Origin: an uncultured Clostridia bacterium
Lineage (GTDB): Bacteria > Bacillota > Clostridia > TANB77 > CAG-508
Direction: 5' to 3'
Assembly (NCBI GenBank): GCA_949538735.1
Contig: CATGLK010000009.1
Span: forward strand, 657 to 64,656
DNA: 64,000 bases
A program made the translations under genes and the position numbers. The notes under the pieces were generated by a model. That model was given only the letters and a program-made list of their open reading frames with translations, had not been told where the DNA came from and did not search any database. Position 1 is the first letter of the stretch; every line of letters starts with the position of its first letter. Shown one piece after another: positions 6,413-33,900 of the stretch.

Positions 6413-7531
6413 TTATTCTTCTTTTAATCTGATTGGTAAAATCATATAAGTATAATCATTATTTTCTGTTGATTTTACTAAACAAGGTGAAATGCTTGAA
6501 CCAAATTCTATATAAACTTCTTCATCATCAATTGCTTTTAAACTATCCAAGAAATACTTTGGATTAAATCCTGCTTCCAAATTTTTTCCTTCAGTTGAAA
6601 CATATAATTCTTCTTTTGCATCTCCTGTTTGATTTGTACAAGAAATTACAACTTTACCTATATCAACTTGTACTTTTACAGGATATTTTTTTTCTTTTTC
6701 TACACTTGATGCTGATATCAAGCTAATTCTTTCAAAACTATTTTGTATACTATTTTTATTTACTTTAATTCTTGTCTCCCAATTATTTGGTATAACATTT
6801 TTATAATTTAAAAACTCACCATCTAAAATTCTTGTTACAATTTTGCAATTATCCATTTCGAATAATGCTTGATTTTTAGAAACTCCTATTTTTATTGGTT
6901 CAAAAGAATCTGATATTATTTTATTTACTTCATTCAATGTTTTTCCTGGTATTACTGCATTAAAATTATTTGTTTGTTTATTTAAATAAATACTTCTTAG
7001 TGCTAATCTAAATCCATCAACAGCAACTAAATTTAATTTATTATTTTCGATTTCGAATAAGCAACCTGTAAAAATTGGTCTACTTTCTTCTGAGCTTACT
7101 GCAAAAATTGTTTTTCTAATCATATTTTTTAAAACACTTTGATCTATTTCAATAGAATTTTCAACTTCTATTTTTGGAAGTTCTGGAAATTCATCTGGAT
7201 TCATTGTTGCTAATTTGTATAATGAACCTTCACATTCAATTTCTAATAAATTTTTGTCATTTATAGAAATATGAATTTCTGTATCTGGTAATTTTCTAAT
7301 GATTTCACTAAACATTATAGCATTAACAACTGTACTTCCTTGTTCTTTTACTTCACATTCCATTATATATTCAATACCTATTTCTAAATCATAGGTTGTT
7401 AATTTTATTTCATTGTCATTAGTTTGAATTAATATTCCTTCTAATATTGGCATTGTTGTCTTAGAAGCAACGCCTTTAACTACGGAATTGATAGCTTTAA
7501 TGATTTTATCTTTATAGCAAACGATTTTCAT
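6413..7531 (-). CDS. dnaN: DNA polymerase III beta sliding clamp
   Basis: 372 aa, three-domain clamp architecture, position immediately downstream of dnaA. Confidence 0.95.
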   Translation of the reverse strand: MKIVCYKDKIIKAINSVVKGVASKTTMPILEGILIQTNDNEIKLTTYDLEIGIEYIMECEVKEQGSTVVNAIMFSEIIRKLPDTEIHISINDKNLLEIECEGSLYKLATMNPDEFPELPKIEVENSIEIDQSVLKNMIRKTIFAVSSEESRPIFTGCLFEIENNKLNLVAVDGFRLALRSIYLNKQTNNFNAVIPGKTLNEVNKIISDSFEPIKIGVSKNQALFEMDNCKIVTRILDGEFLNYKNVIPNNWETRIKVNKNSIQNSFERISLISASSVEKEKKYPVKVQVDIGKVVISCTNQTGDAKEELYVSTEGKNLEAGFNPKYFLDSLKAIDDEEVYIEFGSSISPCLVKSTENNDYTYMILPIRLKEE

Positions 7532-7853
7532 TTTGCTTCCTCCTTTATAATAATATAATATTTTTTAGTAGTAGTAGTAATAGGTGCTGTGGAAACTGTG
7601 GAAAACTATGTGGAAACATACAACCCCTAACAAAAATGATGTTTATAACTCAGTGGATAACTCAAGTAACAATCCACAGGTTTCAACATGCCATGTGTAA
7701 AACTTGAGATATACACAGTTTATCAACAGGTTATTAACACCCCCCTGTGGATAACGAATGCATTGCTTCCGTAGGAACAGAAACAATTACATTTTTCGAA
7801 CAATCATTTTTACAAACACAAATTTCAAAAAAAACTTGAAGTCGTTTTTGCTC
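7532..7853. promoter_or_regulatory. dnaA-dnaN intergenic oriC segment with a DnaA-box cluster (TGTGGAAAC/TGTGGAAAA x3 at 7588-7617, aGTGGATAA 7652-7660, ATCCACA 7672-7678, perfect TGTGGATAA 7746-7754).
   Basis: Box sequences read directly. Typical Firmicute bipartite-origin position. Confidence 0.8.
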
Positions 7854-19137: not shown

Positions 19138-20598
19138 ATGGTAAAAGATGAAAGATATTTAATTGATTTAATTCATTATTTGGTTAAATTTCCCAAAGAA
19201 ACTGAATGGTTAGAGTTTAAAACAAATTATTTTCAAGCTGATGAAATTGGTAAATATGTTAGTGCATTATCAAATTCAGCGACTTTGTATGAAAAAAATT
19301 GCGGATATATGATTTGGGGAGTAGATGATGAAACTCACGAAATTGTTGGGACAAGTTTCGATTATGAAACTAAAAAAGTTGGAAATGAAGAATTTCAAAA
19401 CTGGTTACATAGATTGCTAAAACCTAAAATTAATTTTGAATTTTACAAAGTAAAAATCGATGGCAAAGATATAATTATATTAGAAATACCAAAAGCTGAA
19501 AATGTTGTTACTAAATTTAAAAATGAAGCATACATAAGAGTTGGTACATCAAAAAAATCGCTAAACGAAGCCCCATTGAAGGAAAAAGCGTTATGGAAAA
19601 TTTTAAATGCAACATCTTTTGAAGAAGGTATTGCTGTTGAGAATATTTCAGAAGATATAGTATTAGAAAAATTAGACACAGAGGCATATTTTACTTTATT
19701 AGATATTCCTATTCCAGATGATAAAGCAGGAGTTATTCATTATTTACAACAAGACAGATTGATTTTAAAAGAAGATACAGGTAATTGGAGTATTACAAAT
19801 TTGGGGGCAATTTTATTAGCTAAAAATTTAGATGACTTTAATACTGTGAAAAGAAAAGGCATAAGAGTTATTCATTATAGAGGAAATAATAAATTAGAAA
19901 CAATAAGAGAACAAGTTGGAACCAAAGGATATGCTATTGATTTTGAAAATATTATTGATATTGTGGATAATATTATTCCTAGAAATGAAGTAATAGGAAA
20001 AGCGTTAAGAAAAGAAGTTCCTATGTATCCAGAACTAGCAATACGTGAATTAATAGCTAATAGCGTTGTGCATCAGGATTTTTCAATTTCTGGAACAAGC
20101 CCTATGATTGAGATTTTTGATGATAGAATAGAAATTACAAATCCAGGAATTCCTTTAGTAGAAACAGATAGATTTTTAGATAATCCACCAAAGTCAAGAA
20201 ATGAGCAATTAGCATCATTTTTGAGAAGAATTGGTGTATGTGAAGAAAGAGGAAGTGGATTTGATAAAGTCGTAGCTAAAACAGAAGATTTTCAGTTGCC
20301 AGCACCTAAAATAGATGTCTATAAAGAACATACTAAAGTAACATTGTTTGCACATATTCCATATTCAAAAATGGATAAAGAAGATAAATTAAGAGCTTGT
20401 TATTTACATGCTTGTTTAAAATATGTAAATAATGACTATTTAACAAACACAAGCTTGAGAGAAAGGTTTGGGATAGAGCAGAGAAATAATGCTATGGTTT
20501 CAAGAATTATAAAAAATGGAATTCAAGACAATCTGATTAAAGCATATAGTGAAGATACAGCACCAAGATACATGAAATATGTTCCATACTGGGCTTAA
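19138..20598 (+). CDS. Putative ATP-binding regulator with an AlbA_2 (Schlafen-like) N-domain and a RecG-C-terminal-like HATPase_c_4 domain
   Basis: 486 aa. Domain assignment is from remembered motifs (ELAIRELIANSVVHQDF), so it is moderate-confidence inference. Confidence 0.5.
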   Translation: MVKDERYLIDLIHYLVKFPKETEWLEFKTNYFQADEIGKYVSALSNSATLYEKNCGYMIWGVDDETHEIVGTSFDYETKKVGNEEFQNWLHRLLKPKINFEFYKVKIDGKDIIILEIPKAENVVTKFKNEAYIRVGTSKKSLNEAPLKEKALWKILNATSFEEGIAVENISEDIVLEKLDTEAYFTLLDIPIPDDKAGVIHYLQQDRLILKEDTGNWSITNLGAILLAKNLDDFNTVKRKGIRVIHYRGNNKLETIREQVGTKGYAIDFENIIDIVDNIIPRNEVIGKALRKEVPMYPELAIRELIANSVVHQDFSISGTSPMIEIFDDRIEITNPGIPLVETDRFLDNPPKSRNEQLASFLRRIGVCEERGSGFDKVVAKTEDFQLPAPKIDVYKEHTKVTLFAHIPYSKMDKEDKLRACYLHACLKYVNNDYLTNTSLRERFGIEQRNNAMVSRIIKNGIQDNLIKAYSEDTAPRYMKYVPYWA

Positions 20599-20816
20599 TT
20601 TAACTTGATTGTAACTTGATTTTTAAATACAAAAGTTTTTTTAAAATTCAGGAATTCCTAATAAATCAAGGACTTTAAATCTTTATGTAAAATGATTTTA
20701 ACTTGACGGTAACTTGATTGTAGATAAAATAAATGAAAAAAGTTAAAAATTACTATTGACAAATGTCTTTAAAAATGCTAATATAAATACTGTCGCTAGA
20801 CATTTGTCTAAGATAT

Positions 20817-20908
<92 letters not shown>

Positions 20909-20962
20909 AACAATAAAGTTAGGTATTAACAATATTAAAATATCTAACTTTTATTTATAAAT

Positions 20963-21052
20963 GGAGATGTACCCAAGTGGTGAAGGGGACTGTTTGCTAA
21001 ACAGTTAGGTCGAGAAATCGGCGCGGAGGTTCGAACCCTCTCATCTCCGCCA
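20963..21052 (+). tRNA. tRNA-Ser (anticodon GCT), long variable arm
   Basis: Acceptor stem GGAGATG/CATCTCC, anticodon loop TTGCTAA, encoded CCA. Terminator hairpin at 21063-21100. Confidence 0.85.
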
Positions 21053-21392
21053 ATACAACGATTACTAAAAAACAGCAAAGTGTTTAAAACACGATGCTGT
21101 TTTCTTTTATAAAGAAGATTAACCAATAAAACAATTACCAATATTAAAATAAAGGCTAATGATGTTTTAAATAGAATTTCTCCAATGTAGTGAAGCAATG
21201 CTGTTAAAACAGTTAGCAAAACTAATGCAATTGTAAGTGCTAGACTTATTCGTAATAAAGATTTCATTTTCATAAAGTTTCTCCTATAATGTGGTTTTAA
21301 TTTATTATATTGGCGCTATTAGTCTCCTCCCTATTTAAAATATTGTCTAAGTATAAAAAGATACCTACGAAAGGTATCTTGAACAAAGGAGA

Positions 21393-21725
21393 TTAAAGCA
21401 TAACAATGCCTACAAATAAGGTTGCAAAAATTAAAAATAGAAAACTTAAGGCTTTCAAAATCAATTTTCCTATAATTTCAAAAACTGGCAAAATTAATGC
21501 TATAAAAGCAAATATTATGCAGATCCATAGTAAATAGTTTATTATATTTTCTACTTCAAATATCCATAAAATGAATTGCGTAAATAAAAGTGAAAATATT
21601 AGTATAAGCCAAAAACCAGTATTGTTTGGTTCAATTGCAATAGCAAGAGCCCACCGCAAAAATGTAAAAGAAGCAATACCGATTAAAATGGAAACAGCAG
21701 TCAAAGCTAAAGATTTTAAGTTCAT
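21393..21725 (-). CDS. Small polytopic membrane protein (110 aa, about 4 TM)
   Basis: Hydrophobicity pattern. Terminator hairpin 21357-21381 downstream. Confidence 0.4.
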   Translation of the reverse strand: MNLKSLALTAVSILIGIASFTFLRWALAIAIEPNNTGFWLILIFSLLFTQFILWIFEVENIINYLLWICIIFAFIALILPVFEIIGKLILKALSFLFLIFATLFVGIVML

Positions 21726-22043
21726 AAATTTTCCTCCTGTGAAGCTAGTAGCTTCAGATAAACAACAGTAGTAATAATCTCCTTTCTATTATAAGCGATT
21801 TAGTTTAATCACTTAAAAAAACTGTTGACAGAAATAGTTTAACATAATGTTTTAAAAATGTCAACTAAATAAGTGATGATTTTCAAGAAGTTTGGCGTTG
21901 TGTGGCAATAATAAATTGTATAATAATGAAAATATGTATAAAATTTGTACAAAAGTTTACAATAGTGGTAAAAATGTTGAAAAAAATATTAAAATAAGTT
22001 ATAATAATAATGAAGGAACTATAAAATATATAGGAGAAAAAAT

Positions 22044-22403
22044 ATGAAAAGAAATATGTTAAAATTAATGTGTGCAATACTACTTATTATAATACTTAGC
22101 GTTTTATATATAACGCCATATTGTTATGCGGGACAAGGAGATATTAACACAAATAACTATAAACCGACTAAAGAAGGTGGAACAAGAGCAGCAGAAATAG
22201 GTAACAAAATAATAGGAATATTACAACAAATAGGAAGTATTGTTTCGGTAATTGCATTAGTAGGAATGGGAATAAAATATATGGTTGGTAGTACTGAAGA
22301 AAAAGCAGAATATAAAAAGACTATGATGCCGTATTTTATAGGTGCGATATTAGTATTTGCTACCACAAATGTACTAGCTATGATAAGCAATATATTTGAA
22401 TAG
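22044..22403 (+). CDS. VirB2/TrbC-like T4SS pilin-family protein, paralog 1
   Basis: Signal peptide (cleavage about CYA/G), variable region, then a conserved two-helix hairpin IGSIVSVIALVGMGIKYMVGSTEEKAEYKKTMMPYFIGAILVFA. Promoter TTGAAA-17-TATAAT at 21996-22024. Confidence 0.65.
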   Translation: MKRNMLKLMCAILLIIILSVLYITPYCYAGQGDINTNNYKPTKEGGTRAAEIGNKIIGILQQIGSIVSVIALVGMGIKYMVGSTEEKAEYKKTMMPYFIGAILVFATTNVLAMISNIFE

Positions 22404-22415
22404 GAGGTAGAACGA

Positions 22416-22757
22416 ATGAAAGCAATACAAAAAATTGTGATAATATTAACAATAATAGTTATGATATTAATAATTTTCAGTAGCAGTATATATGCATTTG
22501 AAGTTGGAGATTTTAGTGGAACTCCAATTAATAATAAGGAATTGGATAATGCAGGAAATAAAATAATAACAGTAATTAGTACAATTGGATCTGTTGTTTC
22601 TGTAATTGTGCTAGTTGTGATAGGAATTAAATATATGATAGGAAGTGTAGAAGAAAAAGCAGAGTATAAAAGAACACTAATGCCATATGTAATTGGTGCA
22701 GGACTAGTGTTTGCAGCATCAGCAATAGCAGGAGCAATTTATAATATGGTAAAATAA
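22416..22757 (+). CDS. VirB2/TrbC-like pilin-family protein, paralog 2
   Basis: Same architecture (IGSVVSVIVLVVIGIKYMIGSVEEKAEYKRTLMPYVIGAGLVFAA). Lies 12 nt after paralog 1 and is probably co-transcribed. Confidence 0.65.
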   Translation: MKAIQKIVIILTIIVMILIIFSSSIYAFEVGDFSGTPINNKELDNAGNKIITVISTIGSVVSVIVLVVIGIKYMIGSVEEKAEYKRTLMPYVIGAGLVFAASAIAGAIYNMVK

Positions 22758-22871
22758 TAATATTATAGCGATGAAAAAGTTGAAAAATGTAAAAAAGTAT
22801 GCTATAATATATTGTGTAAAATGTTTTTAAATGTTAAAATATAATTAAAAATAGAAAGGGAGGAATAGAAG

Positions 22872-23237
22872 ATGAAAAAATTATCAAAAATATTAGCAAT
22901 AGTTATGATTGTAACAATGTTATGTATGACAGTTGCAACTATATCAATGGCAGCAACAGCAGCACCAGATCCAAAACAATACACAGGTACAGATACAGAT
23001 GTTGAAGGAATTACTAATATAGGAAATCAAGTTATTACTATTGTAAGTACAGTAGGATCAATAGCTTCTGTTATTGTATTGGTTATATTAGGTCTTAAAT
23101 ATATGATGGGTAGTGCAGAAGAAAAAGCAGAATACAAGAAAACATTAATGCCATACATAATTGGTGCGGCACTAGTATTTGCAGCATCAGCAATCTCAGG
23201 AATAATCTTCAGTTTTACACAAGGTTTAGGTGGATAA
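22872..23237 (+). CDS. VirB2/TrbC-like pilin-family protein, paralog 3
   Basis: Same C-terminal module (VGSIASVIVLVILGLKYMMGSAEEKAEYKKTLMPYIIGAALVFAA). Own promoter TTGAAA-17-TATAAT at 22781-22809. Confidence 0.65.
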   Translation: MKKLSKILAIVMIVTMLCMTVATISMAATAAPDPKQYTGTDTDVEGITNIGNQVITIVSTVGSIASVIVLVILGLKYMMGSAEEKAEYKKTLMPYIIGAALVFAASAISGIIFSFTQGLGG

Positions 23238-23356
23238 TATCCTACAAAGGACAAGCTCATAGGGGCTTGTTTTTTTATGAAATAAACAGCATAAAATGTT
23301 GAAAAAAGTAGACTAATAAGTTATAATATAATAAAGGAGAAAATGGAGGAAAAAAT

Positions 23357-23749
23357 ATGAAGAAAATAATAAGTTGCTTAATTATAATAGTTATATTAGT
23401 GATTGGTTTTTTACCATGTTGTTATGCTGCAAATGGCGCGGATGATGCAATTAAAGATGGTGATAAATTTCTAGATGTAGGAAGACAGCATATAGAAGAT
23501 AAGGGTTCACCAATAAGCGATGAAGGGTTAAAGAACCTTTCTAACTCTATGAGTAATATGTTACTCTTAATAGGGACAATAGTAGCAGTTGCAGTAGGAG
23601 TTGTATTAGGAATTAAATTCATGTTAGCAAGTGTAGAAGAAAAAGCAAAAGTAAAAGAAATGTTAACAATATATATTATAGGATGTGTAGTTTTATTTGG
23701 GGCTTTCACGATTTGGAAGATTTGTGTTGAATTATTTAGTAGTATTTAG
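23357..23749 (+). CDS. VirB2/TrbC-like pilin-family protein, paralog 4 (most divergent)
   Basis: IGTIVAVAVGVVLGIKFMLASVEEKAKVKEMLTIYIIGCVVLFGA. Own promoter ATGTTGAAAAAAG..TTATAAT at 23287-23317. Confidence 0.6.
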   Translation: MKKIISCLIIIVILVIGFLPCCYAANGADDAIKDGDKFLDVGRQHIEDKGSPISDEGLKNLSNSMSNMLLLIGTIVAVAVGVVLGIKFMLASVEEKAKVKEMLTIYIIGCVVLFGAFTIWKICVELFSSI

Positions 23750-23861
23750 AATATTACGATATAATTACGAAACATTTACATTTTTGTAAAATGAGGAAAA
23801 AAGCAATACATAAAGATAAAAAAATGTTATAATATAAGTAATATTATAATAGGAGGAAATT

Positions 23862-24218
23862 ATGGGAACATATAACATACCAAGAAACCTAAAAGGAGAA
23901 GGAAGAATTTTATATGTATTTTCAACAAAAGCATTGGCATATACAGGAGCAGGTGCTGTAATAGGAGGATTATTTTATTTTATACTCAATGCAATTGGAC
24001 TTACATTTTTAGGATTAATGTTTGTAGTTATTTTTGGATTTATAGGATTTTCAATAGCAACATTCAAAATTCCGAAAATAAAAACTATAAAATTTTTAAA
24101 GGACATTAGCGGAGAGAACATTGATGAGATAATAAAGCGATATATAAAATTCAAATCAAAAAAGAAGAATAGATATGCATTATATAAAACAAAGGAGGAA
24201 GTAATAGATGGAGAGTAA
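23862..24218 (+). CDS. PrgI-family (VirB3-like) small two-TM T4SS protein
   Basis: N-terminus MGTYNIPRNLKGEGRILYVFSTKALAY matches the remembered PrgI-family pattern (YxIPxxL...KI...LTxRQ). Hydrophobic hairpin. Extended -10 TGTTATAAT at 23843-23851. Confidence 0.55.
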   Translation: MGTYNIPRNLKGEGRILYVFSTKALAYTGAGAVIGGLFYFILNAIGLTFLGLMFVVIFGFIGFSIATFKIPKIKTIKFLKDISGENIDEIIKRYIKFKSKKKNRYALYKTKEEVIDGE

Positions 24219-25440
24219 TGAAATTACAAATTTATTAACAATAATTTTAGCAGTTTTTTTGTGTGTGTTAGTTATTCTTATAATAGTATATGTAATATTA
24301 CTTGCTAAAAGCAAAAAAGGAAATTCAAATAAACAAAAATCAAGTAATGAAATAATTATTAATGATAATAAAAAGGCAAAGAAAGAAAAAGTAAAAATAG
24401 ATACAACAGAAGATATAAGTAAATTTATGGAATTCGAAAAAGTGCAAGATAATATGATAATCCAGAAAGAAAGATCTAAGTACATAATGGTAGTAGAATG
24501 CCAAGGTGTAAATTATGACTTAATGTCAGAAGCAGAAAAAATAGGAGTAGAAGAGGGATTTCTACAATTTTTAAATACATTAAGGCATCCTGTTCAAATA
24601 TATGTCCAAACAAGAACTGTAAATTTAGAAGAAAGTATAAGTAGATATAGAAGTAAATTTTCCCAAATAGAAAGTGAAATGTATAAAAAAAGGCAAGAAT
24701 ATATGACAATAAAAGATGACCTCAACTATACAAAAGAGCAGAGACAAAAAGCCCTATACGCATTTACCAAAGCTAGAAACTTATATGAATATGGAAGAGA
24801 CATAATTGAAGATACCGAAAAAATGAGCTTAAATAAGAATATTTTAAATAAAAAGTATTATATTATTATTCCATATTATGCAGAAGATTTAAAAGACGGA
24901 AACTTTGAAATAGAAGAAATAAGAGGTCATGCATTTACAGAATTGTATACAAAATCACAAGCAATTATAAGAACACTAACTGCATGTGGTGTGAATGGAA
25001 AAATATTAAATACTAAAGAATTAATAGAGTTATTATATGTAGCTTATAATAGAGACCATGAAGAAGTATTTAACATTGATAAAATTATTGGAGCAGGATA
25101 TGATAAATTATATTCTATGGCAGAAGATGTATATGCAAAGAAAATAAGAGCAATAGATAAACAAATAGAAGAAGAAGCTATAAATAAAGCAAAAGAGAAT
25201 TTAAATATTGCAAAAACGGCGTTAGAACAGGAAGCTATAAGAAAAGATAAAGAAAGAGAAAGCATAATTGATGAATTAGCAAAAATGATATTGGAAGAAA
25301 ATAGAGAATATGTAGATGAGAAATTAATAGACACTGCAATAGAGCAAATTGACGGGGAAAAGAAATCAAAGAAAACTAAAGAAAAGGAGGTAAATCAAGA
25401 TGGCAAGAGAAAAACAACTAGAAGAACAACAAAACAATAA
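24208..25440 (+). CDS. Membrane-anchored protein carrying a TrsE-type VirB4 N-terminal domain plus a long coiled coil (the N-terminal half of a split VirB4)
   Basis: N-terminal TM (LLTIILAVFLCVLVILIIVYVILL). The motif YIMVVECQGVNYDLMSEAEKIGVEEGFLQFLNTLRHPVQIYVQTRTVNL parallels IKILKIIPINYNLKSDLEKEAIL..FDIQIFIQSSKIDL of the edge VirB4 gene. Lys/Glu-rich C-terminal coiled coil. Overlaps the next ORF by 41 nt. Confidence 0.5.
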   Translation: MESNEITNLLTIILAVFLCVLVILIIVYVILLAKSKKGNSNKQKSSNEIIINDNKKAKKEKVKIDTTEDISKFMEFEKVQDNMIIQKERSKYIMVVECQGVNYDLMSEAEKIGVEEGFLQFLNTLRHPVQIYVQTRTVNLEESISRYRSKFSQIESEMYKKRQEYMTIKDDLNYTKEQRQKALYAFTKARNLYEYGRDIIEDTEKMSLNKNILNKKYYIIIPYYAEDLKDGNFEIEEIRGHAFTELYTKSQAIIRTLTACGVNGKILNTKELIELLYVAYNRDHEEVFNIDKIIGAGYDKLYSMAEDVYAKKIRAIDKQIEEEAINKAKENLNIAKTALEQEAIRKDKERESIIDELAKMILEENREYVDEKLIDTAIEQIDGEKKSKKTKEKEVNQDGKRKTTRRTTKQ

Positions 25441-27373
25441 AGAAGAAAAAATTACATTGTTAAAAAATACCTCAATAAAAGAAATGATTGCACCTTCAGG
25501 AGTAGATGCTTCAAGTTTGGATCATTTAGAAATAGTATCAAATATTAAAAGATATGCTAGAAGCTTTGTAGTTTCAACATTGCCAAGAATGTGTAGTTTT
25601 CCAGAATTATTTAGAGATATGTACATGTTTGGAGATATAAACACATCAATATATATAAATCCAATTGCAGAATCAAGATCACAAAATGAGTTAAATAGAG
25701 TAATAAATGAATTAGAGACAGAAAGAATAGTAGCACAAGACAAAGGAAATATAAACAGAGAAAGTACTCTAGTTCAAAAACGTATAGAAGCAGAGCAGTT
25801 AAGAGATGAGATAGCAGCAGGGTTTAATAAATTATTTGAAGCATCAGTAATATCAACTCTATATGCCTATAACATGGAGGACTTAGATAAATTAACAAAA
25901 CTATTAGAAACCGAAATGTCAAAAAACTTATTAGATATAAAAAGTGCTTGGGCAATGCAAGAGGAAGCATATCAAAGCAATGTACCATTAATGCAAGATA
26001 AAGTAAAGAAAATACATACTTTTGATAGAAGATCAATGGGAACAGTATTTCCTTTTACAACTTCTGATGTAGGACATCCATCAGGAGTACCAATAGGATT
26101 TAATAAACAAACAGGAGTGCCAATATTATTTGATAATTTCCATCCATCATTAACAAATTATAATATGGTTATATTTGCAAAATCTGGTGCTGGAAAATCA
26201 GTAACAATGAAAACATTGATATCTAGGTCATCTGTATTAATGGGGATAGAAAGTTTGGCATTAGATGCTGAAGGAGAGTATTCAATAGTTACAGAAAGTC
26301 TAGGTGGGATAAATGTTGTATTAAGTCCAAACTCAAAAACTATTATAAATGTTTTTGATATTGAACCAGAGAGAATAAAAGATGAAATTACAGGAAAAGA
26401 AAGAATTGTTCTAAATGTTGAAAATAAAATAGAAGACGTAACACAAGCTTTGTTAACAATGGCAAGAGGAAGTACGAGAAGTGATGAAGTAAATGAATTA
26501 ACAAAACAAATTATAGCAGAGTCGGTTGCGGAAGAATATGCGGCATTAGGAATAACTAATGATCCTCAAAGCTTATTCCGTGAAAGTGGAACATTTGACA
26601 GAAACGATAAACTATACAGGGAAAAGAAAGAAATGCCTACTATAGGTAGTTGGTATAGAAGAATACAAAAGAAAGCTCAAGATAATGATAATAAAGATTA
26701 TAGTTTTCATTATAGTTATTTATTAAAAGTTATGAAACAATACATAAGAGAGTATGACGGACAAATGGCCTACTTTGATGGACAATCAACTTTTGAATTA
26801 TTAGACGGAGCACCATTTATAAATTTAGATATATCACAATTGGAAGAAAGATTTGCAAGACCTTTGGCACAGCAAATATTACTTTCTTGGATATGGGAAA
26901 AATACGTAAAGAAAAATAGTGAAGATAGAACAAAAGCTAAAAAGAAAAGAGTGTTGGTTGATGAGGCATGGATGCTATTACCATACCCAGAAGCTGTGGA
27001 TTTCTTAAACACAATGGCAAGACGTGCTAGAAAGAGAAATGTATCGCTTGCTATTATATCTCAAAGATTTCAAGATTTTTATGAGAAACCTGAAGCACAA
27101 GCAGTATTAACATCTTCTGATACAAAGTTATTCTTAGCACAAGATAAATCAGAAATACAGTACTTAAAAGAAGTGTTTAAACTAAGTGAAGGTGAAGCTG
27201 GTTTCTTAGTAACTTGTTTAAAAGGAGAAGGACTATTAAAGGTAGGAGCAGATTCGGCAATTATTCAAGTAAGACCAACACAAAAGGAATTTGAGTTTGT
27301 GGAAACAAACTTAAATAAAATGGTAGAAATGAGAAGAAAAAATGAGGAGAATGAAGTGTATGAGGACAATTAA
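25400..27373 (+). CDS. VirB4/ConE-family T4SS ATPase (middle domain plus ATPase)
   Basis: Strong RBS AAGGAGG at 25384-25390. Middle-domain motifs (MIAPSGVD...YPR-like, TVFPFTTSDV), Walker A IFAKSGAGKSV, LDAEGEY, Walker B-like VLVDEAWMLL. Confidence 0.85.
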   Translation: MAREKQLEEQQNNKEEKITLLKNTSIKEMIAPSGVDASSLDHLEIVSNIKRYARSFVVSTLPRMCSFPELFRDMYMFGDINTSIYINPIAESRSQNELNRVINELETERIVAQDKGNINRESTLVQKRIEAEQLRDEIAAGFNKLFEASVISTLYAYNMEDLDKLTKLLETEMSKNLLDIKSAWAMQEEAYQSNVPLMQDKVKKIHTFDRRSMGTVFPFTTSDVGHPSGVPIGFNKQTGVPILFDNFHPSLTNYNMVIFAKSGAGKSVTMKTLISRSSVLMGIESLALDAEGEYSIVTESLGGINVVLSPNSKTIINVFDIEPERIKDEITGKERIVLNVENKIEDVTQALLTMARGSTRSDEVNELTKQIIAESVAEEYAALGITNDPQSLFRESGTFDRNDKLYREKKEMPTIGSWYRRIQKKAQDNDNKDYSFHYSYLLKVMKQYIREYDGQMAYFDGQSTFELLDGAPFINLDISQLEERFARPLAQQILLSWIWEKYVKKNSEDRTKAKKKRVLVDEAWMLLPYPEAVDFLNTMARRARKRNVSLAIISQRFQDFYEKPEAQAVLTSSDTKLFLAQDKSEIQYLKEVFKLSEGEAGFLVTCLKGEGLLKVGADSAIIQVRPTQKEFEFVETNLNKMVEMRRKNEENEVYEDN

Positions 27374-29981
27374 AAGTAAGTGGCAAAAGTTGGTAATTGC
27401 ATTTTTGGTAGTTATAATGTTGTTTAATGTAGTGTTCCCTCCATACTCTAGAGCTGATTTTGGGGGAACCTTATTTGAACCAATAGCAGAATTTATATGT
27501 GGAGTAGGAGATGCAATAATGAATATCCTTCAAACAACGATGTTACCTGGGGCACCTAAAGCTGTTGAAACAAGAACGGTAGGAGATTTATTATCTGATG
27601 AATTGGTAGAGTCAGATAATTGGATAGACAAAGCGAAAGGATGGTTTATGAAGTTTGAAGGAGCGGTAGACAACATACCAGTTTTGGGAGATATTTATAG
27701 AGGTGGATCTAGTTTTTTGAAAGCATTTAATCCAATAGGGATGGTAAAGGGAACAGTTAAGAATGTAAAAGATATGGGACCGTTGGCACTTTTAGGAGGA
27801 GGAATTCTAGGAGGTTTTAGAGAAGCGAAGGATAATTATGAAGGGTATTATGAATTATATAGAGAAACAACAGTAGTACCATTAATGTTATATGGACCAG
27901 CAGCAATATTTTCTAATTTGGTACCAGCACTAGATGTCAATTTTATAAATCCACATGTAGGATATAAAGGAGGATCTATAACATTTAATCTAGAACATGG
28001 AAAATGGGAAAGAGGAGCGAAGACAGAAATAACATCAGTTTACACAGAAGATACTAATGCAGATGAATATGTAGGAAATATTGCACTGAAATTACAAGCT
28101 ACTATTGCTAAATGGTATTTAGCCTTAAGAAATATTGCAGTTGTAATGATGTTATCTGTATTGGTATACGTAGGAATAAGGATTATATTATCAAGCACAG
28201 CAGGCGAAACGGCTAAGTATAAAACACTATTAAAAGATTGGCTTGTTGGGATGTGCTTATTATTTACATTACATTATATGATGGCTTTTATATTAAAAGG
28301 AGCAGAGATGGTAACAGATTTATTTTCATCATCTGAAATGATGATAATTGATGAAAAAGATGATGGAGTAATGATAGATCCGTTTTTGACATCTACTAGA
28401 CTACTTGCAGTAGGTATGGATGATAATATAGACGATCAAACTCTAAATGAGATGAAATTTGATTTAGGTGATATGTTTGGGTATACAGTGATATATTGTC
28501 TATTAGTAGTTTACACTATAATATTTACATGGAAATATTTAAAGAGATTCGTGTATTTAGCATTTTTAACTATGATATCTCCATTAGTAGCATTTACATA
28601 TCCTATAGATAAAATGAAAGATGGAAGTGCGCAAGCTTTTAATATGTGGATGAAAGAATATACATATAATGTACTAATTCAACCATTACACTTATTATTA
28701 TATGCTATACTTATAAGTGCAGCTCAAGATTTTGCAGAAACAAATTTAATTTATACTGTTGTAGTGTTAGGATTCTTGTTGGAAGCAGAGAAAATATTCA
28801 AATCACTATTTGGATTTAATAAAGCTAGTGGAGGAGAATTATCAGCAGCAGTTACAGGAGGAGCATTATTTGGAACAGCGGCAGGATTTACAAAAAATAT
28901 GTTCAAAAAACTACCTGGAGATAAAAATAATAAAAAAGATTCAGGTGGGTCTGATGGAACTGGAAGCAATAGTAAGATACGTATGGACAGAAAAGCGGAT
29001 TCAGATAAAAAAGGAATAAATTTAGGAACAGCATTTGGTGGTGGAATATCTAATAGTAGTTCGTCAACAGGTGGTGCTACTATGTTAAGTAGTGGAACAT
29101 CAGGAAATAGTTTGTCTAAAAATAATAATTTAAGTAATAGTTCATTAGGAAATACTGTTGCAGGAAATGGTAGTATGCCAGTGATTTTAGGAAGTGGTGC
29201 AGCAAAAGGAAAATATTCAGGAAAATTAGGAAAAACAACAGGAAAATTAGGTAAAAGCATTAATAATTCTAAATTCGGACAATCAAATATTGGAAGAAAA
29301 ACAATTAGAGGTGTTAAAGGAGTAGGAAGAGTTGCAGGTACAGGTGCTAAAAAGGTATTTACTACGAAAAATGGTATTAGATTAGCTAAAGGAGCAGCTT
29401 CAGTAGCAGGAGCAGCAGCATTAGGAACAATGGGATTGGCAGCAGGACTAGCATCAGACAATCCAGAAGATGCAATCAAATATGCTACTGTTGGTGCAGG
29501 AGCAGGTGCACTTATAGGTAGTAAAACAGTGGGAGCTGTAGGAGCAGGCGGTAATGCTATAAAAAATGCTACAACAGGAATAAGAGATGAATTTGAGAAA
29601 GGTGCATACGGAAAAAAAGGTGCTCAAGAAAGAGCTAATAAGAGACTTGATGAAAAATGGAAGAAATCTTCAGAGACCGTACAGCATTATAAAGATGAGT
29701 ACGGAGATAATTGGGAAGATGCAATGGATAATGCAATGGAACTAAGAAAACGTGGAATAGTAGATCAAAAAGAGTTAGATATGGCACAAAAAATGATGGA
29801 CAGAAATCAAGGACAAATGAATTTAGACCAAACAGCAGCAATTATGAAAGCGTCGAGAGGATTAACATCTCAAAGTTTAAAAGAAAATAGAAAAGACATA
29901 TTAGAGAGTATAATGGATGAAGTACAAGACTCTAATACAGCTAATAAGATTATAAACGAAATGCGACAAAATTTAGAATAG
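27342..29981 (+). CDS. VirB6/ConG/Orf15-like polytopic T4SS channel protein with a Gly/Ser/Asn-rich C-terminal low-complexity region
   Basis: 879 aa. N-terminal signal/TM, a large extracytoplasmic domain, at least 5 TM helices (aa about 260-480), then a G/S/N/K-rich stretch (aa about 500-750). Confidence 0.55.
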   Translation: MRRMKCMRTIKSKWQKLVIAFLVVIMLFNVVFPPYSRADFGGTLFEPIAEFICGVGDAIMNILQTTMLPGAPKAVETRTVGDLLSDELVESDNWIDKAKGWFMKFEGAVDNIPVLGDIYRGGSSFLKAFNPIGMVKGTVKNVKDMGPLALLGGGILGGFREAKDNYEGYYELYRETTVVPLMLYGPAAIFSNLVPALDVNFINPHVGYKGGSITFNLEHGKWERGAKTEITSVYTEDTNADEYVGNIALKLQATIAKWYLALRNIAVVMMLSVLVYVGIRIILSSTAGETAKYKTLLKDWLVGMCLLFTLHYMMAFILKGAEMVTDLFSSSEMMIIDEKDDGVMIDPFLTSTRLLAVGMDDNIDDQTLNEMKFDLGDMFGYTVIYCLLVVYTIIFTWKYLKRFVYLAFLTMISPLVAFTYPIDKMKDGSAQAFNMWMKEYTYNVLIQPLHLLLYAILISAAQDFAETNLIYTVVVLGFLLEAEKIFKSLFGFNKASGGELSAAVTGGALFGTAAGFTKNMFKKLPGDKNNKKDSGGSDGTGSNSKIRMDRKADSDKKGINLGTAFGGGISNSSSSTGGATMLSSGTSGNSLSKNNNLSNSSLGNTVAGNGSMPVILGSGAAKGKYSGKLGKTTGKLGKSINNSKFGQSNIGRKTIRGVKGVGRVAGTGAKKVFTTKNGIRLAKGAASVAGAAALGTMGLAAGLASDNPEDAIKYATVGAGAGALIGSKTVGAVGAGGNAIKNATTGIRDEFEKGAYGKKGAQERANKRLDEKWKKSSETVQHYKDEYGDNWEDAMDNAMELRKRGIVDQKELDMAQKMMDRNQGQMNLDQTAAIMKASRGLTSQSLKENRKDILESIMDEVQDSNTANKIINEMRQNLE

Positions 29982-29995
29982 GAATATGATTTAAT

Positions 29996-30929
29996 ATGAA
30001 TAAATTAATCAGAACATATAATCAAAACAGAAAAAAGATAAATATAGTTATACTTGCAATTATTTGCTTCTTTATACGGATTACAACTATTAAATAGTTT
30101 AAGTAAAAAACAAAAAAACATAGAAATAAATAATAATATAAGTTCTTCTACTAATACTATTGTTTCTGAAACTAATAAACAATATGAAGCTATTACAGGG
30201 CAGAAAAAAAATGAGAATACATATAAAACTCAGACAGAGGTAATTAAACAGTTTTTAGATAAGTGTAACGAAGGAGATACTCAAGGAGCATATGACTTGC
30301 TTTCAGATAATTGCAGGCAAGTCGAATATCCATCAATAAATGATTTTATTGATGGATATTATAATAGAAACTTTGATGAAAAAAAATCATACAATTATCA
30401 AGTTTGGAATGGAAATACATATAAAATAGAAATAAGACCAGATATCTTGTCTACTGGTATATATGATTCATCAGTATATTTAGAAGATTATTATACTTTA
30501 GAAAATAATAAATTAAATATAAATGGATATATAGCAAGAAAGAAAATAGAAAAAGAATTGGAAAAAGATAATATAAAGATAAAAGTAATGAGTATGGATT
30601 TTTTTAGAGATTATACAGTTTGCAACATTCAAGTATTTAATAAAACAGACAGTGAAATATTATTAGATACTAGAGATAAGGAAAACACAGTATATTTAAC
30701 TGATAAAAAAGAAGTTAAATACAATTCATATATAAATGAACTTAACGAAGAAGAAATAAGAGTGTTATTAGGTGAGAAGAAAGACATAAAAATTAAATTT
30801 AATTGTATATATAGAGAAAACTTATCAATAAAAAAACTATCATTTGATAATATAATTATGAATTATGAAAATTATACTATCAACAATATTGAAGATAAGG
30901 ATGCGATAAAAATAGAAATAGCAATATAG
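29996..30929 (+). CDS. VirB8/TcpC-like (NTF2-like) bitopic protein. The N-terminal TM segment lies in a different frame (29996-30097) from the main ORF (30054-30929), so an indel or frameshift is present.
   Basis: Frame A reads MNKLIRTYNQNRKKINIVILAIICFFI..., ending TAG 30095-30097. Frame B opens after TAG 30045-30047, with a TTG at 30054. The motif QFLDKCNEGDTQGAYDLLSDNCRQVEY is repeated in the 457-aa protein. Confidence 0.5.
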
Positions 30930-30954: not shown

Positions 30955-33900
30955 TTGGAATTTAAAGGAAAGGCAGATATATTAACAAAATTGAAAAAGG
31001 CAGTTATGCTAAAAATAAAGATAGTAGCTGTATCAATTATAATACCAATAATTATAGCTGTTATATTGATAACATCGTTAGTGAAAGAAAATAAAAGACA
31101 AATGTCAAAGTCAACACAAGCAAATATATATAAAGCATTAAACGATAATGAAACAGATTTATCACAATTAGTTGAGATAAAAGGTGACGATTCCAATGGA
31201 TATTATCTTGAATTTGTAAGTGACATAGATCAAAGATTGCAAAAGGTCTTAAAAGCAGACAAAGAAACGTATAATGCTATGGGAATAAAAGATGTTAGTA
31301 TATTAAAGAAATTTATAAAAGCTCAATTAGCTACAGAGTTTCCACATTTAGGAGCAAGAATGTCAGGTGGTGGAAGCGGAGCAAGTGGTAGCATTAATGG
31401 AGATCCAGACTTAAGTAATACAACATTTTATCCGCGAGACAGTCAAAATGGGTGGTGCCAATGGTATACAACAGGTCGTATTAGAGAAATATATGGTTTG
31501 GATATACCACCAGATGGAAATCCAGCAGTAGGGTCTGTAAGTGGGTTAAGATTTACATATAATATATTATATGATGAATGGTTATGTAATACATATCCAG
31601 ATTATTTTGAAATGTCTACAGAACCAGCACCAGGTGCAGTATATTGTGCAACGGCATTTGATCATGTAAGTTTTATAAGGGCTGTGGATGTAGATGCAGG
31701 AACAATAACTGTAGAAGATGGAAATAGTGCTCCATTTGGATATGAGGGTGCAAGATTTATTAATTGGACTTCAGAATATGGAATAACCAATCGCCAAGGT
31801 GGAAGTGCTGGGTTAGCAATATATACAGAATCTATAGAATCTTTTAAATCAAGGACAAAAGCAAGATATTGTGTACCTACTGAAAAAGCTAAAGCTTTAA
31901 TGAAAGGCGGAAATGTAACAGACAAGACATCAAATAAATCAAATATAGATAGTTTAGAGGGAGTTTTATTTATAGGAGATTCAATTACAAAAGGATTAGA
32001 GAATTACCACGTTATAACAGATAAAGGAGTACAGTTTAGAGGCGTAATTAGTGCAGCTCCTAGACATTGGCTAAATGATCAACCAGTAAATGGAGTTCCG
32101 ACATTTAGTTCGTTGCCAAACGATAGTGATTCAATTACAGCCATATGCCTTATGCTAGGAACAAACGGGATAGATAATCCAGCTGGACAAGCTGACACAA
32201 TGAAACAGGTAATAGAAAAAATACATGATAAATATCCGAACAAAACGATATATGTGCAAAAGATTTTACCAGTAAGAGAATATGAATCTCAAGTAGAAAC
32301 ATATAATACTAAACTAGAAGAAATATGTAGTTCATTAGGATATACAGTATGTATAAATTCTACAGCCAATGTTGAGTTGGAACCAGGAGATGGAGTGCAT
32401 CCTACAGCGAATGGATCAAAAACATTAGCAGAAAATACAAGAGAACAAATTATAATGGGAGCACAATCAGGAGGAAAAGCAGTAACAAATCCAAATGCAT
32501 TTCAAGGTTCTATAAGAATTAGGAGAATAGGACCAAACAAAGGGGTTGGAGAATATAAAGAGTTAGAACAAGGACAGATTATTGAAGAAGATATAAAAAA
32601 TGAAGGTAAAACAGAAGAGGGACGAGGAAAAAAGGAAGAAATACCAGAAAATATAAAAAATAAAATTATAAAAAAGACAGTTCCAGAAGATAAAAAAGAG
32701 GTATTAGATAGTTTAGCATATTTGACTATTCCATATGTTGACTTTAAAGGTGCAGTAAAAAATGGTCATATGATAGTTAATAAAAATATTGCCGATGAAG
32801 TATTAGACTTATTTCAGGATTTATATAATATAAGATATCCTATAGAAAAGATGGAAATTGTAGAAGAGTATGAACAAGAAGAAGACACAGATAGTGGTAT
32901 AGAGTATAAATCAATTGATGATAATAATACATATTCGTTTTATTATTTAAGTGATGGAGCACATTCAACAGGTAATGCAATAGCAATAAATCCAAAGATA
33001 AATCCAAAGGTAACAAATGGAAATCCGGGGCATGCAAATGCAATAAAATATAGCCATAGAGATGATAAAACTAGATGGAAAGACTATGAAAAGGAAGCAT
33101 GTATAGAAAAAGATTCTGAAGCATATAAAGTTTTTGAAAAGTATGGTTGGATTTGGGGGGGAGACAATAGCGAAACTCCTAATTATATGCATTTTGAAAA
33201 AACAGTAATATCAGAAACAGAGACACAGAAAACAGTAGTTGATACGAGAATATACGATTTATCTTATGTTCCAGAAGAGACATTTAATAAATATGTGGAA
33301 GAAAATAACAGTAGAGCATTAAGAGTATATACATTAGATGATAAAAAGCAGTTAACAATAGCAACATGGTCATATAGTACAGACGGAGGATTAAAAATTT
33401 CAAAGGGAAAAACCATAAATTATAAAGCAGCATTATCTAAATATAGTATGCCAGTAGATTATTTATTAGCAATATTGATGCATTCAGAGGATAAGGTATT
33501 TGCAGAAGGTTTAGCAGATTTAGCAATAGATAGTGAATATATAATATCTGTACAAGATTCAGTAAATACAACTCAAACAGTTACTCAAGTACAAACAGAT
33601 ACATTACAAACAGAAGATATAACAGGAGCAACAGCTATAATAGGAACTTCAACCGAATCTAGTACAAAAGTTACAGAAAGTTCTTCACAACAAATAGAGG
33701 TAACATATGTAGATTGTTGGTTTGTAAAATATGCAAAAGATTTTAGTTTTCATGTAGATACATCAATAGGGAACATAGGAAATGAAGTTAATCTTTCTGG
33801 AAAAAAAGGTGAAAAGATTGGTGATTTCACAATAACAGCATATTGTCCATGTACGCAGTGTTCAGGAGGTTATGGCTCAGCTACAGCTACAGGAACTCAA

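Follow-up and report, generated by a model that had tools for sequence, protein, structure and literature searches.

A tandem array of VirB2/TrbC-family pilin genes opens a chromosomal, relaxase-less type IV secretion locus in gut Clostridia

Judged by gene content and setting, the closest described analogue of the locus reported here is the Patescibacteria type IV secretion system (T4SS), which is chromosomal, derives from the mating-pair-formation class MPF_FATA, mostly lacks a relaxase, and often lies next to dnaA (Quinonero-Coronel et al. 2025, PMC12102498; PMC12857230). Its genes encode TrsD, VirB3, VirB4, VirB6, and arrays of 2-11 VirB2 proteins, for example in Ca. Southlakia epibionticum ML1 and Ca. 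Nanosynbacter lyticus TM7x (PMC12102498). The system is essential in Ca. Southlakia epibionticum, and a December 2025 review describes the T4SSs of Patescibacteria as unique among monoderms in two respects, that they are needed for growth and that they could form conjugative-type pili (PMC12857230). In Gram-positive bacteria, PrgF of the Enterococcus faecalis plasmid pCF10 is the first experimentally supported VirB2-like protein, and the late-2025 preprint that describes it, the only experimental evidence for VirB2-like pili in this group, reports that ~95% of the conjugative plasmids of these bacteria encode VirB2-like proteins (ter Beek et al., bioRxiv 10.64898/2025.12.18.695078). Here we analyze a 64-kb stretch of DNA from an uncultured Clostridia bacterium (contig CATGLK010000009.1; "the window"), in which four tandem pilin genes, P1 to P4, open a T4SS locus. 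The original prediction for this DNA had assumed an ordinary Gram-positive T4SS; the locus is instead a core chromosomal, relaxase-less one and not a mobile element. Ordinary Clostridia thus also hold a relaxase-less chromosomal T4SS with a clear VirB2 array detectable by hidden Markov models (HMMs), and as far as the literature consulted shows no earlier description of such a locus exists for this phylum.

The resemblance to the Patescibacteria system covers a monoderm host, a chromosomal location usually without a relaxase and often near dnaA/oriC, and a tandem array of divergent VirB2 genes (2-11 in Patescibacteria) together with PrgI/VirB3, TrsD-like, VirB4, and VirB6 genes; the pilins of both are detected by the same two families, PF04956 and PF18895. 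Proximity to oriC is seen in 28 of 44 Clostridia species but not in the rest. There are also disparities. The host is an endospore-forming member of the Clostridia (SpoIIR and a Germane domain are encoded in the window) rather than of the candidate phyla radiation (CPR). A very large VirB1-like hydrolase is present here, whereas most CPR genomes with VirB2 are without VirB1, and the paralogs share 30-50% identity, compared with a CPR average of 25%. Like the pilins described here, PrgF is small, has two helices and a charged loop, and belongs to a Gram-positive T4SS in which VirB6, VirB3, and VirB4 are its neighbors; it is proposed to polymerise on a pentamer of the VirB6 protein PrgH through the wall. 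However, the sequence of PrgF shows almost no similarity to VirB2, and the protein is the single-copy product of a conjugative plasmid with a relaxase and a type IV coupling protein (T4CP), whereas the pilins described here match TrbC/VirB2 HMMs directly, form two-class arrays, and are chromosomal, without linked DNA transfer (Dtr) genes.

Three further systems share part of this organization. The Trw system of Bartonella has tandem, sequence-variable VirB2 (trwL) copies, is chromosomal and without a coupling protein, and is thought to retain pilus production with translocation dropped; it differs in being a diderm MPF_T system close to plasmid R388, with VirB5 (trwJ) copies and a role in erythrocyte adhesion, while for the Clostridia locus there is no evidence of an animal-cell target. 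Clostridial and Bacillus plasmids (the C. botulinum pINGR16-02E1 family, C. beijerinckii p1, and pXO1-type plasmids) carry the same gene order, consisting of a small membrane protein, PrgI-like and TrsD-like proteins, VirB4 (41% identity), a VirB6-like protein with an N-terminal pilin-like segment, and a wall hydrolase, but these systems are plasmid-borne and have one weak pilin candidate (PF18895 E = 0.0013, below the cutoff) and no array. The pilin-like model NF045849 (Mbov_0395 family) of Mycoplasma integrative and conjugative elements (ICEs) is matched by P2-P4 at 19-37 bits against a cutoff of 40, and VirB4 and the VirB6-like protein weakly match models of neighboring ICE genes, but all of these matches are below equivalog cutoffs and the Mycoplasma genes are single-copy on mobile ICEs.

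Coordinates and consensus of the array reproduce the open reading frames (ORFs) that had been proposed for it. On the forward strand, as are all genes and promoters of the locus given below unless stated otherwise, lie P1 (22044-22403; 119 amino acids (aa)), P2 (22416-22757; 113 aa), P3 (22872-23237; 121 aa), and P4 (23357-23749; 130 aa). All four products exceed the Pfam gathering cutoff of PF18895 T4SS_pilin (26.6 bits), at 35.3, 45.1, 44.4, and 32.4 bits, respectively, and P1-P3 only also exceed that of PF04956 TrbC/VirB2 (27.9 bits), at 39.7, 45.3, and 41.2 bits; P4 is unmatched by TrbC. Profile search thus supports the assignment of P1-P4 as VirB2/TrbC-family pilins that was suggested earlier. 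In alignment, the signal peptide of each protein is followed by 20-37 variable residues (the N-region) and by a C-terminal two-helix hairpin with the consensus ..IGSIVSVIVLVVLGIKYMxGSxEEKAEYKKTLMPYIIGAxLVFA.., whose charged loop GSxEEKAEYKK varies little or not at all. Of the 19 invariant columns, just three (I15, A29, and N54) are outside the C-terminal hairpin, and identity to P1 is 44% for P2, 41% for P3, and 30% for P4. The leaders read MK(K/R), 15-20 hydrophobic residues, and then (C/I/S)-(Y/M)-A, a motif that, judged from its -3/-1 residues, would be a cleavage site of the signal peptidase I type. A lipoprotein reading of these proteins was ruled out, as no lipobox precedes the Cys residues of the leaders. 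An AlphaFold2 model of P3 built from 53 homologues (mean predicted local distance difference test score (pLDDT) 78) bears out the predicted hairpin as a helix-loop-helix, with helices at residues 2-29 (the leader), 45-79, and 82-120.

The pilins are tied to T4SS genes, as had been supposed. Directly downstream of P4 are a PrgI/VirB3-like gene (23862-24218; 118 aa; PF12666 at 27.8 bits, at the threshold of 27.0), a gene for a 410-aa TrsD-like protein homologous to the N-terminal region of VirB4 (24208-25440), and a 657-aa VirB4 ATPase gene (25400-27373). The TrsD-like protein is assigned as such from its weak match to NF045975 VirB4_plasma, over positions 45-314, together with a precomputed match to the TraC-like family PF26593. 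VirB4 contains P-loop_TraG, DUF87, and AAA_10 domains with intact Walker A (GAGKS) and Walker B (VLVDEAW) motifs; it matches CD1110-type (193 bits), Mycoplasma-ICE-type (187 bits), and TraC-type models at 1e-41 to 1e-57, all below equivalog cutoffs, and the VirB4 structure 4AG5 in the PDB at E = 5e-26. It is of the monoderm type and is accompanied by a PrgI-type VirB3, as in MPF_FATA T4SSs. Across metagenome loci anchored on the pilins and with enough downstream DNA, PrgI/VirB4 stand beside the array in 52 of 53, so the family is found together with T4SS genes rather than away from them. The VirB4 gene is split: the 410-aa protein corresponds to the N-terminal third of VirB4 models and its gene overlaps that of the 657-aa ATPase by 41 nucleotides (nt), and both split and overlap are kept in relatives (403 + 653 aa in locus L006).

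The chromosomal setting of the locus bears directly on whether it is mobile. Gene order in the window is gyrB-recF-dnaN-dnaA, then rnpA-yidC-jag-mnmE-mnmG-rsmG-parA-parB, DUF4446, two tRNA-Ser genes, and the array, with dnaJ-domain, patatin, spoIIR, dnaX, and recR genes beyond the T4SS cluster. The array starts ~12.5 kb from the dnaA-rnpA gap (oriC), and the GC skew changes sign at 8-10 kb. The tRNA-Ser(UGA) and tRNA-Ser(GCU) genes (20817-21052, forward strand) form a conserved upstream border: of 12 other species tested, 11 have the pair directly before the array, and the remaining one (locus L030) has it in inverted orientation (7463-7706) within the array, with the P3 ortholog on one side and the P4 ortholog on the other, a local rearrangement. 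Its position immediately downstream of two tRNA-Ser genes, which are a classic site of integration, would suit the view that the locus is the mating-pair-formation part of an ICE whose relaxase and T4CP lie outside or act in trans, or a decaying remnant of one, and the nearest plasmid VirB4s (41% identity) do occur in the same gene order on large clostridial plasmids of C. botulinum and C. beijerinckii, with TrsD-like homologues on pXO1-type plasmids. We nevertheless regard such a reading as very unlikely. No relaxase, T4CP, or integrase was found among the scanned ORFs of at least 100 aa in the 64 kb, the 3' end of the tRNA-Ser genes has no att-like repeat elsewhere in the window, and the GC content of the cluster (0.28-0.33) equals that of its flanks. 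The upstream ORFs sampled in other species included no element gene and neither a relaxase nor a T4CP. In 44 species with at least 5 kb of upstream DNA, genes of the oriC region precede the array in 28, a pair of ~424-aa paralogs does so in 15 of the remaining 16 (an M16 peptidase pair in the one locus scanned), and the sampled loci away from oriC have prs, yqeY, rpsB, tsf, or nrdD nearby, making a fixed housekeeping context in 43 of 44. No relative of the pilins was found when the pilin alignment was searched against 2.9 million viral contigs or when P3 was searched against PLSDB plasmids by tblastn. Decay is argued against by purifying selection on VirB4 as strong as that on MnmG and by its intact Walker motifs.

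The locus is also widespread and strongly conserved. A VirB4 search with one genome per species returned at least 586 relatives, and the best 80, examined for identity, are 80 species-level metagenome-assembled genomes labeled uncultured Clostridia or Clostridium sp.; they come from the gut of human, rabbit, chicken, goat, and mouse and show 80-88% identity. Conservation of the locus extends to at least 80 species and probably to hundreds. VirB4 conservation is on par with that of MnmG (78-88%) and ParA (79-90%), while other proteins of the locus evolve fast (median identity 52% for PrgI, 49% for the TrsD-like protein, and 32% for the VirB6-like protein), as do the pilins. The fixed housekeeping context and strong conservation are the reasons for considering the locus vertically inherited. 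The pilin family as a whole comprises 3743 clusters at 90% identity in a word search and 6160 at 50% identity in a full HMM search; together with the ~95% of plasmids noted above, this makes the view that VirB2 pilins are unusual in Gram-positive T4SSs outdated.

Nor is an array of several copies exceptional, as had been thought, since 2-11 VirB2 genes occur in Patescibacteria (PMC12102498) and 2-6 pilins per locus, most often three, are usual in the related loci of this clade. Clustering of the hairpin domains of 227 pilins from 72 species resolved two classes. Class A (151 sequences, 72 species, ~124 aa, loop GSaEEKAEYKK) includes P1-P3, and class B (67 sequences in 63 species, signature GC.V.FGAF.IWK, 90-439 aa) includes P4, which is therefore not a fourth diversified copy of the others but a member of a separate class; the hairpin sequences indicate that both classes are ancient and deep. 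The long forms of class B have an N-terminal region of 250-360 aa without a Pfam match. Two loci, L061 (4515-7347) and L025 (4406-6833), carry two tandem long class B pilins of ~430-440 aa with a Pfam-less N-terminal region of ~350 residues. Orthologs are closer to each other than paralogs are: hairpin identity across species is 85-90% for P3, similar to VirB4, compared with ~41-50% among paralogs, and is 62-73% for P1 and P2 (64-65% for P1) and 55-59% for P4. Pilin modules also occur as covalent fusions, with 33 of 149 top family representatives being single chains of 2-5 hairpin modules joined by 5-15 aa linkers behind one leader; the existence of these polypilins is certain, but the fraction is inflated by a score ranking that favors multi-module proteins. 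A five-module protein lies between single pilins and is followed by PrgI, a TraC-like gene, and VirB4, placing it in the same type of locus. Chains of 3-5 hairpins are represented by P0121 (L171 801-2153) and by P0122, P0124, and P0126.

These patterns bear on the suggestion that the array serves antigenic or specificity variation, in which the paralogs would be alternative major subunits, one expressed at a time, and change in the N-region would evade immunity or phage or match partners. Such systems have precedents in Bartonella (Trw) and Anaplasma, P1, P3, and P4 have separate near-consensus promoters (see below), and the N-regions are the least conserved part of the pilins, with 19-65% identity between orthologs compared with 55-90% for the hairpins. 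However, five independent assemblies of the window species differ by just 0-1 single-nucleotide polymorphism (SNP) per pilin gene, not above neighboring genes and fewer than in parA or parB, and a repeat search found neither invertible-promoter repeats nor silent cassettes. The paralogs are old, with each of them retained from species to species; relatives carry fusions of 2-5 modules, and P1 and P2 probably share one transcription unit. The within-species data lend no support to antigenic diversification as proposed, and we consider variation of this kind unlikely. The evidence agrees best with the other option offered by the original prediction, namely functional diversification or a fibre of several subunits. 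Given the module fusions, the old and retained classes, the probable shared P1-P2 unit, and the small within-species variation, the best reading of these sequences would be a heteromeric pilus or wall-spanning conduit.

The regulatory DNA of the array is consistent with distinct roles for its genes. Near-consensus promoters had been assigned to P1, P3, and P4, and these stand: TTGAAA-17-TATAAT sites, each matching 11 of 12 consensus positions, precede P1 (21977-22005, in the first copy of a 36-nt module at 21971-22006), P3 (22780-22808, second copy, with a TG), and P4 (23299-23327, third copy, 86% identical to the P1 copy over 36 nt). They occupy ranks 1-3 of a consensus scan over 17 kb (21-38 kb). 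The exact pattern TTGAAA-N17-TATAAT occurs four times in the window against 0.2 expected, a count reached in 0 of 100 shuffles, and three of the four sites directly precede these genes. By repeat search the three modules are one 36-nt repeat family of 78-86% identity. The repeated string previously noted for all three modules, AAAATGTTGAAAAAA...AAGTTATAAT, holds for the P1 and P4 copies only, the P3 copy reading AAAAAGTTGAAAAAT...TGCTATAAT instead. A promoter had also been proposed for the PrgI-like gene, but just an extended -10 element, TGTTATAAT (23825-23833), was identified there, with a -35 hexamer matching at 3 of 6 positions, and for this reason the scan does not list the site. Across the nearest three species (L006, L009, and L030), the P1 and P3 promoters keep position and consensus while the flanking intergenic DNA has diverged. 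Among other species about half of the gaps of at least 60 nt before a pilin gene have a promoter match of at least 10/12, which is not clearly above the AT-rich background, and conservation of the module is therefore claimed for no genes but P1 and P3, and for these in the nearest species. Within the P3 leader, at 22829-22865, lies a second TGTTAAAAT-type element that resembles the PrgI upstream region at 23822-23858 (37 nt, 81% identical, AAATGTTA(A/T)AATATAA...AGGAGGAA), forming a second reiterated upstream element.

P2 follows P1 by 12 nt, as originally observed; this gap contains an AGGAGG ribosome-binding site and, by consensus scan, no promoter-like site, and P2 is probably co-transcribed or translationally coupled with P1. 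An intrinsic terminator follows P3 (23246-23276, forward strand), with a 13-bp stem, a U-run, and a folding energy of -14.4 kcal/mol (z = -3.9; 0 of 200 shuffles equally stable). The consensus scan, which listed five terminator-like sites, did not include it. None of the stretches after P1, P2, and P4 folds when tested in this way, leaving P3 alone with a strong terminator, and an Rfam scan of 20.7-24.3 kb found two tRNAs only and no known leader RNA in the array. From this layout we infer transcription units of P1-P2(-P3), of P3 from its own promoter to the terminator, and of P4 onward into the machinery genes, with which P4 may be co-transcribed, there being no terminator before PrgI.

Taken together, the P1-P4 products are probably Sec-exported VirB2/TrbC pilins that serve as fibre or conduit subunits, with a division of labor among them, of a T4SS fixed in the chromosome of a large uncultured clade of low-GC, endospore-forming gut Clostridia and used for something other than self-transfer. 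The absence of a relaxase, coupling protein, and integrase from the locus makes such a use most likely, and the lack of Dtr genes, the chromosomal fixation, and the strong selection on VirB4 point the same way. In a possible pathway, signal peptidase I would cleave the leaders to yield mature pilins of ~86-106 aa, which would sit in the membrane as two-helix hairpins with the GSxEEKAEYKK loop facing the cytoplasm and the variable N-region on the outer side. VirB3 and the VirB4 ATPase, the latter with its TrsD-like partner, would extract the pilins from the membrane for polymerisation on a VirB6-like platform, in which the internal hairpin may serve as template for the first layer; the giant multi-enzyme hydrolase would open the peptidoglycan wall. 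P3 is probably the major, bulk subunit, because its conservation is highest, a consensus promoter of its own precedes it, and no other gene of the array is followed by a strong terminator; P1 and P2 would then be accessory class A subunits, and P4 a minor class B pilin whose counterparts elsewhere display a large ectodomain.

The use to which such a conduit is put admits more than one answer. A relaxase-less T4SS could import DNA, like ComB of H. pylori or the archaeal Ced/Ted systems, with the pilins as capture fibre or channel. ComB and Ced are T4SS-derived importers without a relaxase, the window has neither relaxase nor T4CP, and the locus is chromosomal and conserved, all of which speak for an uptake system. 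However, scans of the locus revealed no DNA-binding or ComEC-like component, the analogous T4SS of Southlakia is essential independently of ComEC, and the data do not discriminate import from export; DNA uptake is in our judgment decidedly unlikely. The use that we favor for the system is contact, or exchange of material, with other cells. A stronger form of this idea, that the heteromeric VirB2-pilus T4SS is a core organ for attaching to other bacteria and taking material from them or exchanging it, the solution by which the T4SS becomes essential in the epibiotic Saccharibacteria, and that it shares direct ancestry with the Patescibacteria system, one lineage being the donor, is unlikely. 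Were it true, dependence on partner cells would be one reason that the clade is uncultured, and the polypilins and the VirB6 hairpin would provide a handle on the templating of T4SS pili.

Several observations weigh against a fixed system of cooperating pilins with a non-conjugative role. The P3 model has no match in the PDB by Foldseek at E <= 0.001, and so none to solved T4SS pilins such as VirB2 of the T-pilus, TrwL of R388, and TraA of F; its best matches are hairpins of the ATP-synthase c-subunit and other generic membrane hairpins at E > 1, and a hairpin of this size is not discriminating. A profile of the pilin alignment has no match among PDB sequences; family membership therefore rests on the HMMs and gene context. 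The promoters of the array are consensus matches only, and weaker promoter matches occur at chance level (101 found against 104 expected in DNA of 29% GC). Correlations between the divergence of T4SS and housekeeping proteins (Spearman, on distances to the window species) are for the most part weak and without significance, as nearly all of the species lie at a similar distance. The genome could encode a T4CP or relaxase elsewhere, since the view spans 64 kb here and +/-10 kb flanks in other species. The P4 ortholog of L006 (10528-10900), the nearest sequenced species, is called as pieces of 43 aa and 77 aa, as also in L007 and L008, and may be disrupted or mis-started in L006; because of this split, class B may be dispensable in some species. 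Finally, besides the inflated count of polypilins, fusion shows that modules can work together, not that P1-P4 do. Even so, the locus offers sequence-tractable material on the passage of a pilus through a thick wall, the reason for keeping several pilins, and the role of T4SSs that lack DNA-transfer genes. Should the clade prove to be TANB77, an order of gut bacteria, it is a clinically noted group; a paper on a "conserved pilin" of TANB77 concerns a Tad-type pilus cluster linked to immunotherapy response and does not mention a T4SS.

The remaining genes of the cluster follow VirB4 on the same strand. The first encodes a VirB6-like polytopic membrane protein of 879 aa (27342-29981) with an embedded pilin-like hairpin at aa 261-318; this segment, ALRNIAVVMMLSVLVYVGIRIILSSTAGETAKYKTLLKDWLVGMCLLF, aligns with the pilin hairpin (20 bits with a local HMM), its counterparts in the orthologs P0392 and P0441 pass the PF18895 cutoff, and the homologue on the C. 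botulinum plasmid shares the feature. The hairpin may be a built-in template for pilus nucleation. A 291-aa protein (30054-30929) without a Pfam or NCBIfam match is syntenic in most loci. The VirB1-like cell-wall hydrolase (30955-35688; 1577 aa) combines CHAP, GDSL/SGNH, Peptidase_M15_4, 3D, and Phage_lysozyme domains and may cut several peptidoglycan chemistries; in size it far exceeds the VirB1-like hydrolases known from Gram-positive T4SSs. The last gene (35723-37096; 457 aa; syntenic) encodes a DUF4864 protein (28.4 bits), for which a VirB8-like role is a conjecture based on its fold class, and a palindromic terminator found by consensus scan (37101-37138) closes the cluster. A PHROGs scan of seven locus proteins gave no match.

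Upstream, the region between DUF4446/tRNA-Ser and the array (19138-21990) is a variable spot. Its AlbA_2/HATPase_c_4 gene (19138-20598) is missing in L002 and is replaced by a PMT_2 gene in L006, and in L003 and L004 an AbiEii/DUF6922 pair just before the array replaces the gene for a 110-aa membrane protein (21393-21725, reverse strand). A 7-nt inverted repeat, GTTGACA...TGTCAAC with 28 nt between its arms, is located at 21824-21865, ~110 nt upstream of the P1 promoter, and overlaps a reverse-strand promoter-like TTGACA-17-TAAACT site with a TG, directed toward the gene for the 110-aa membrane protein. The repeat may be an operator or no more than the divergent promoter.

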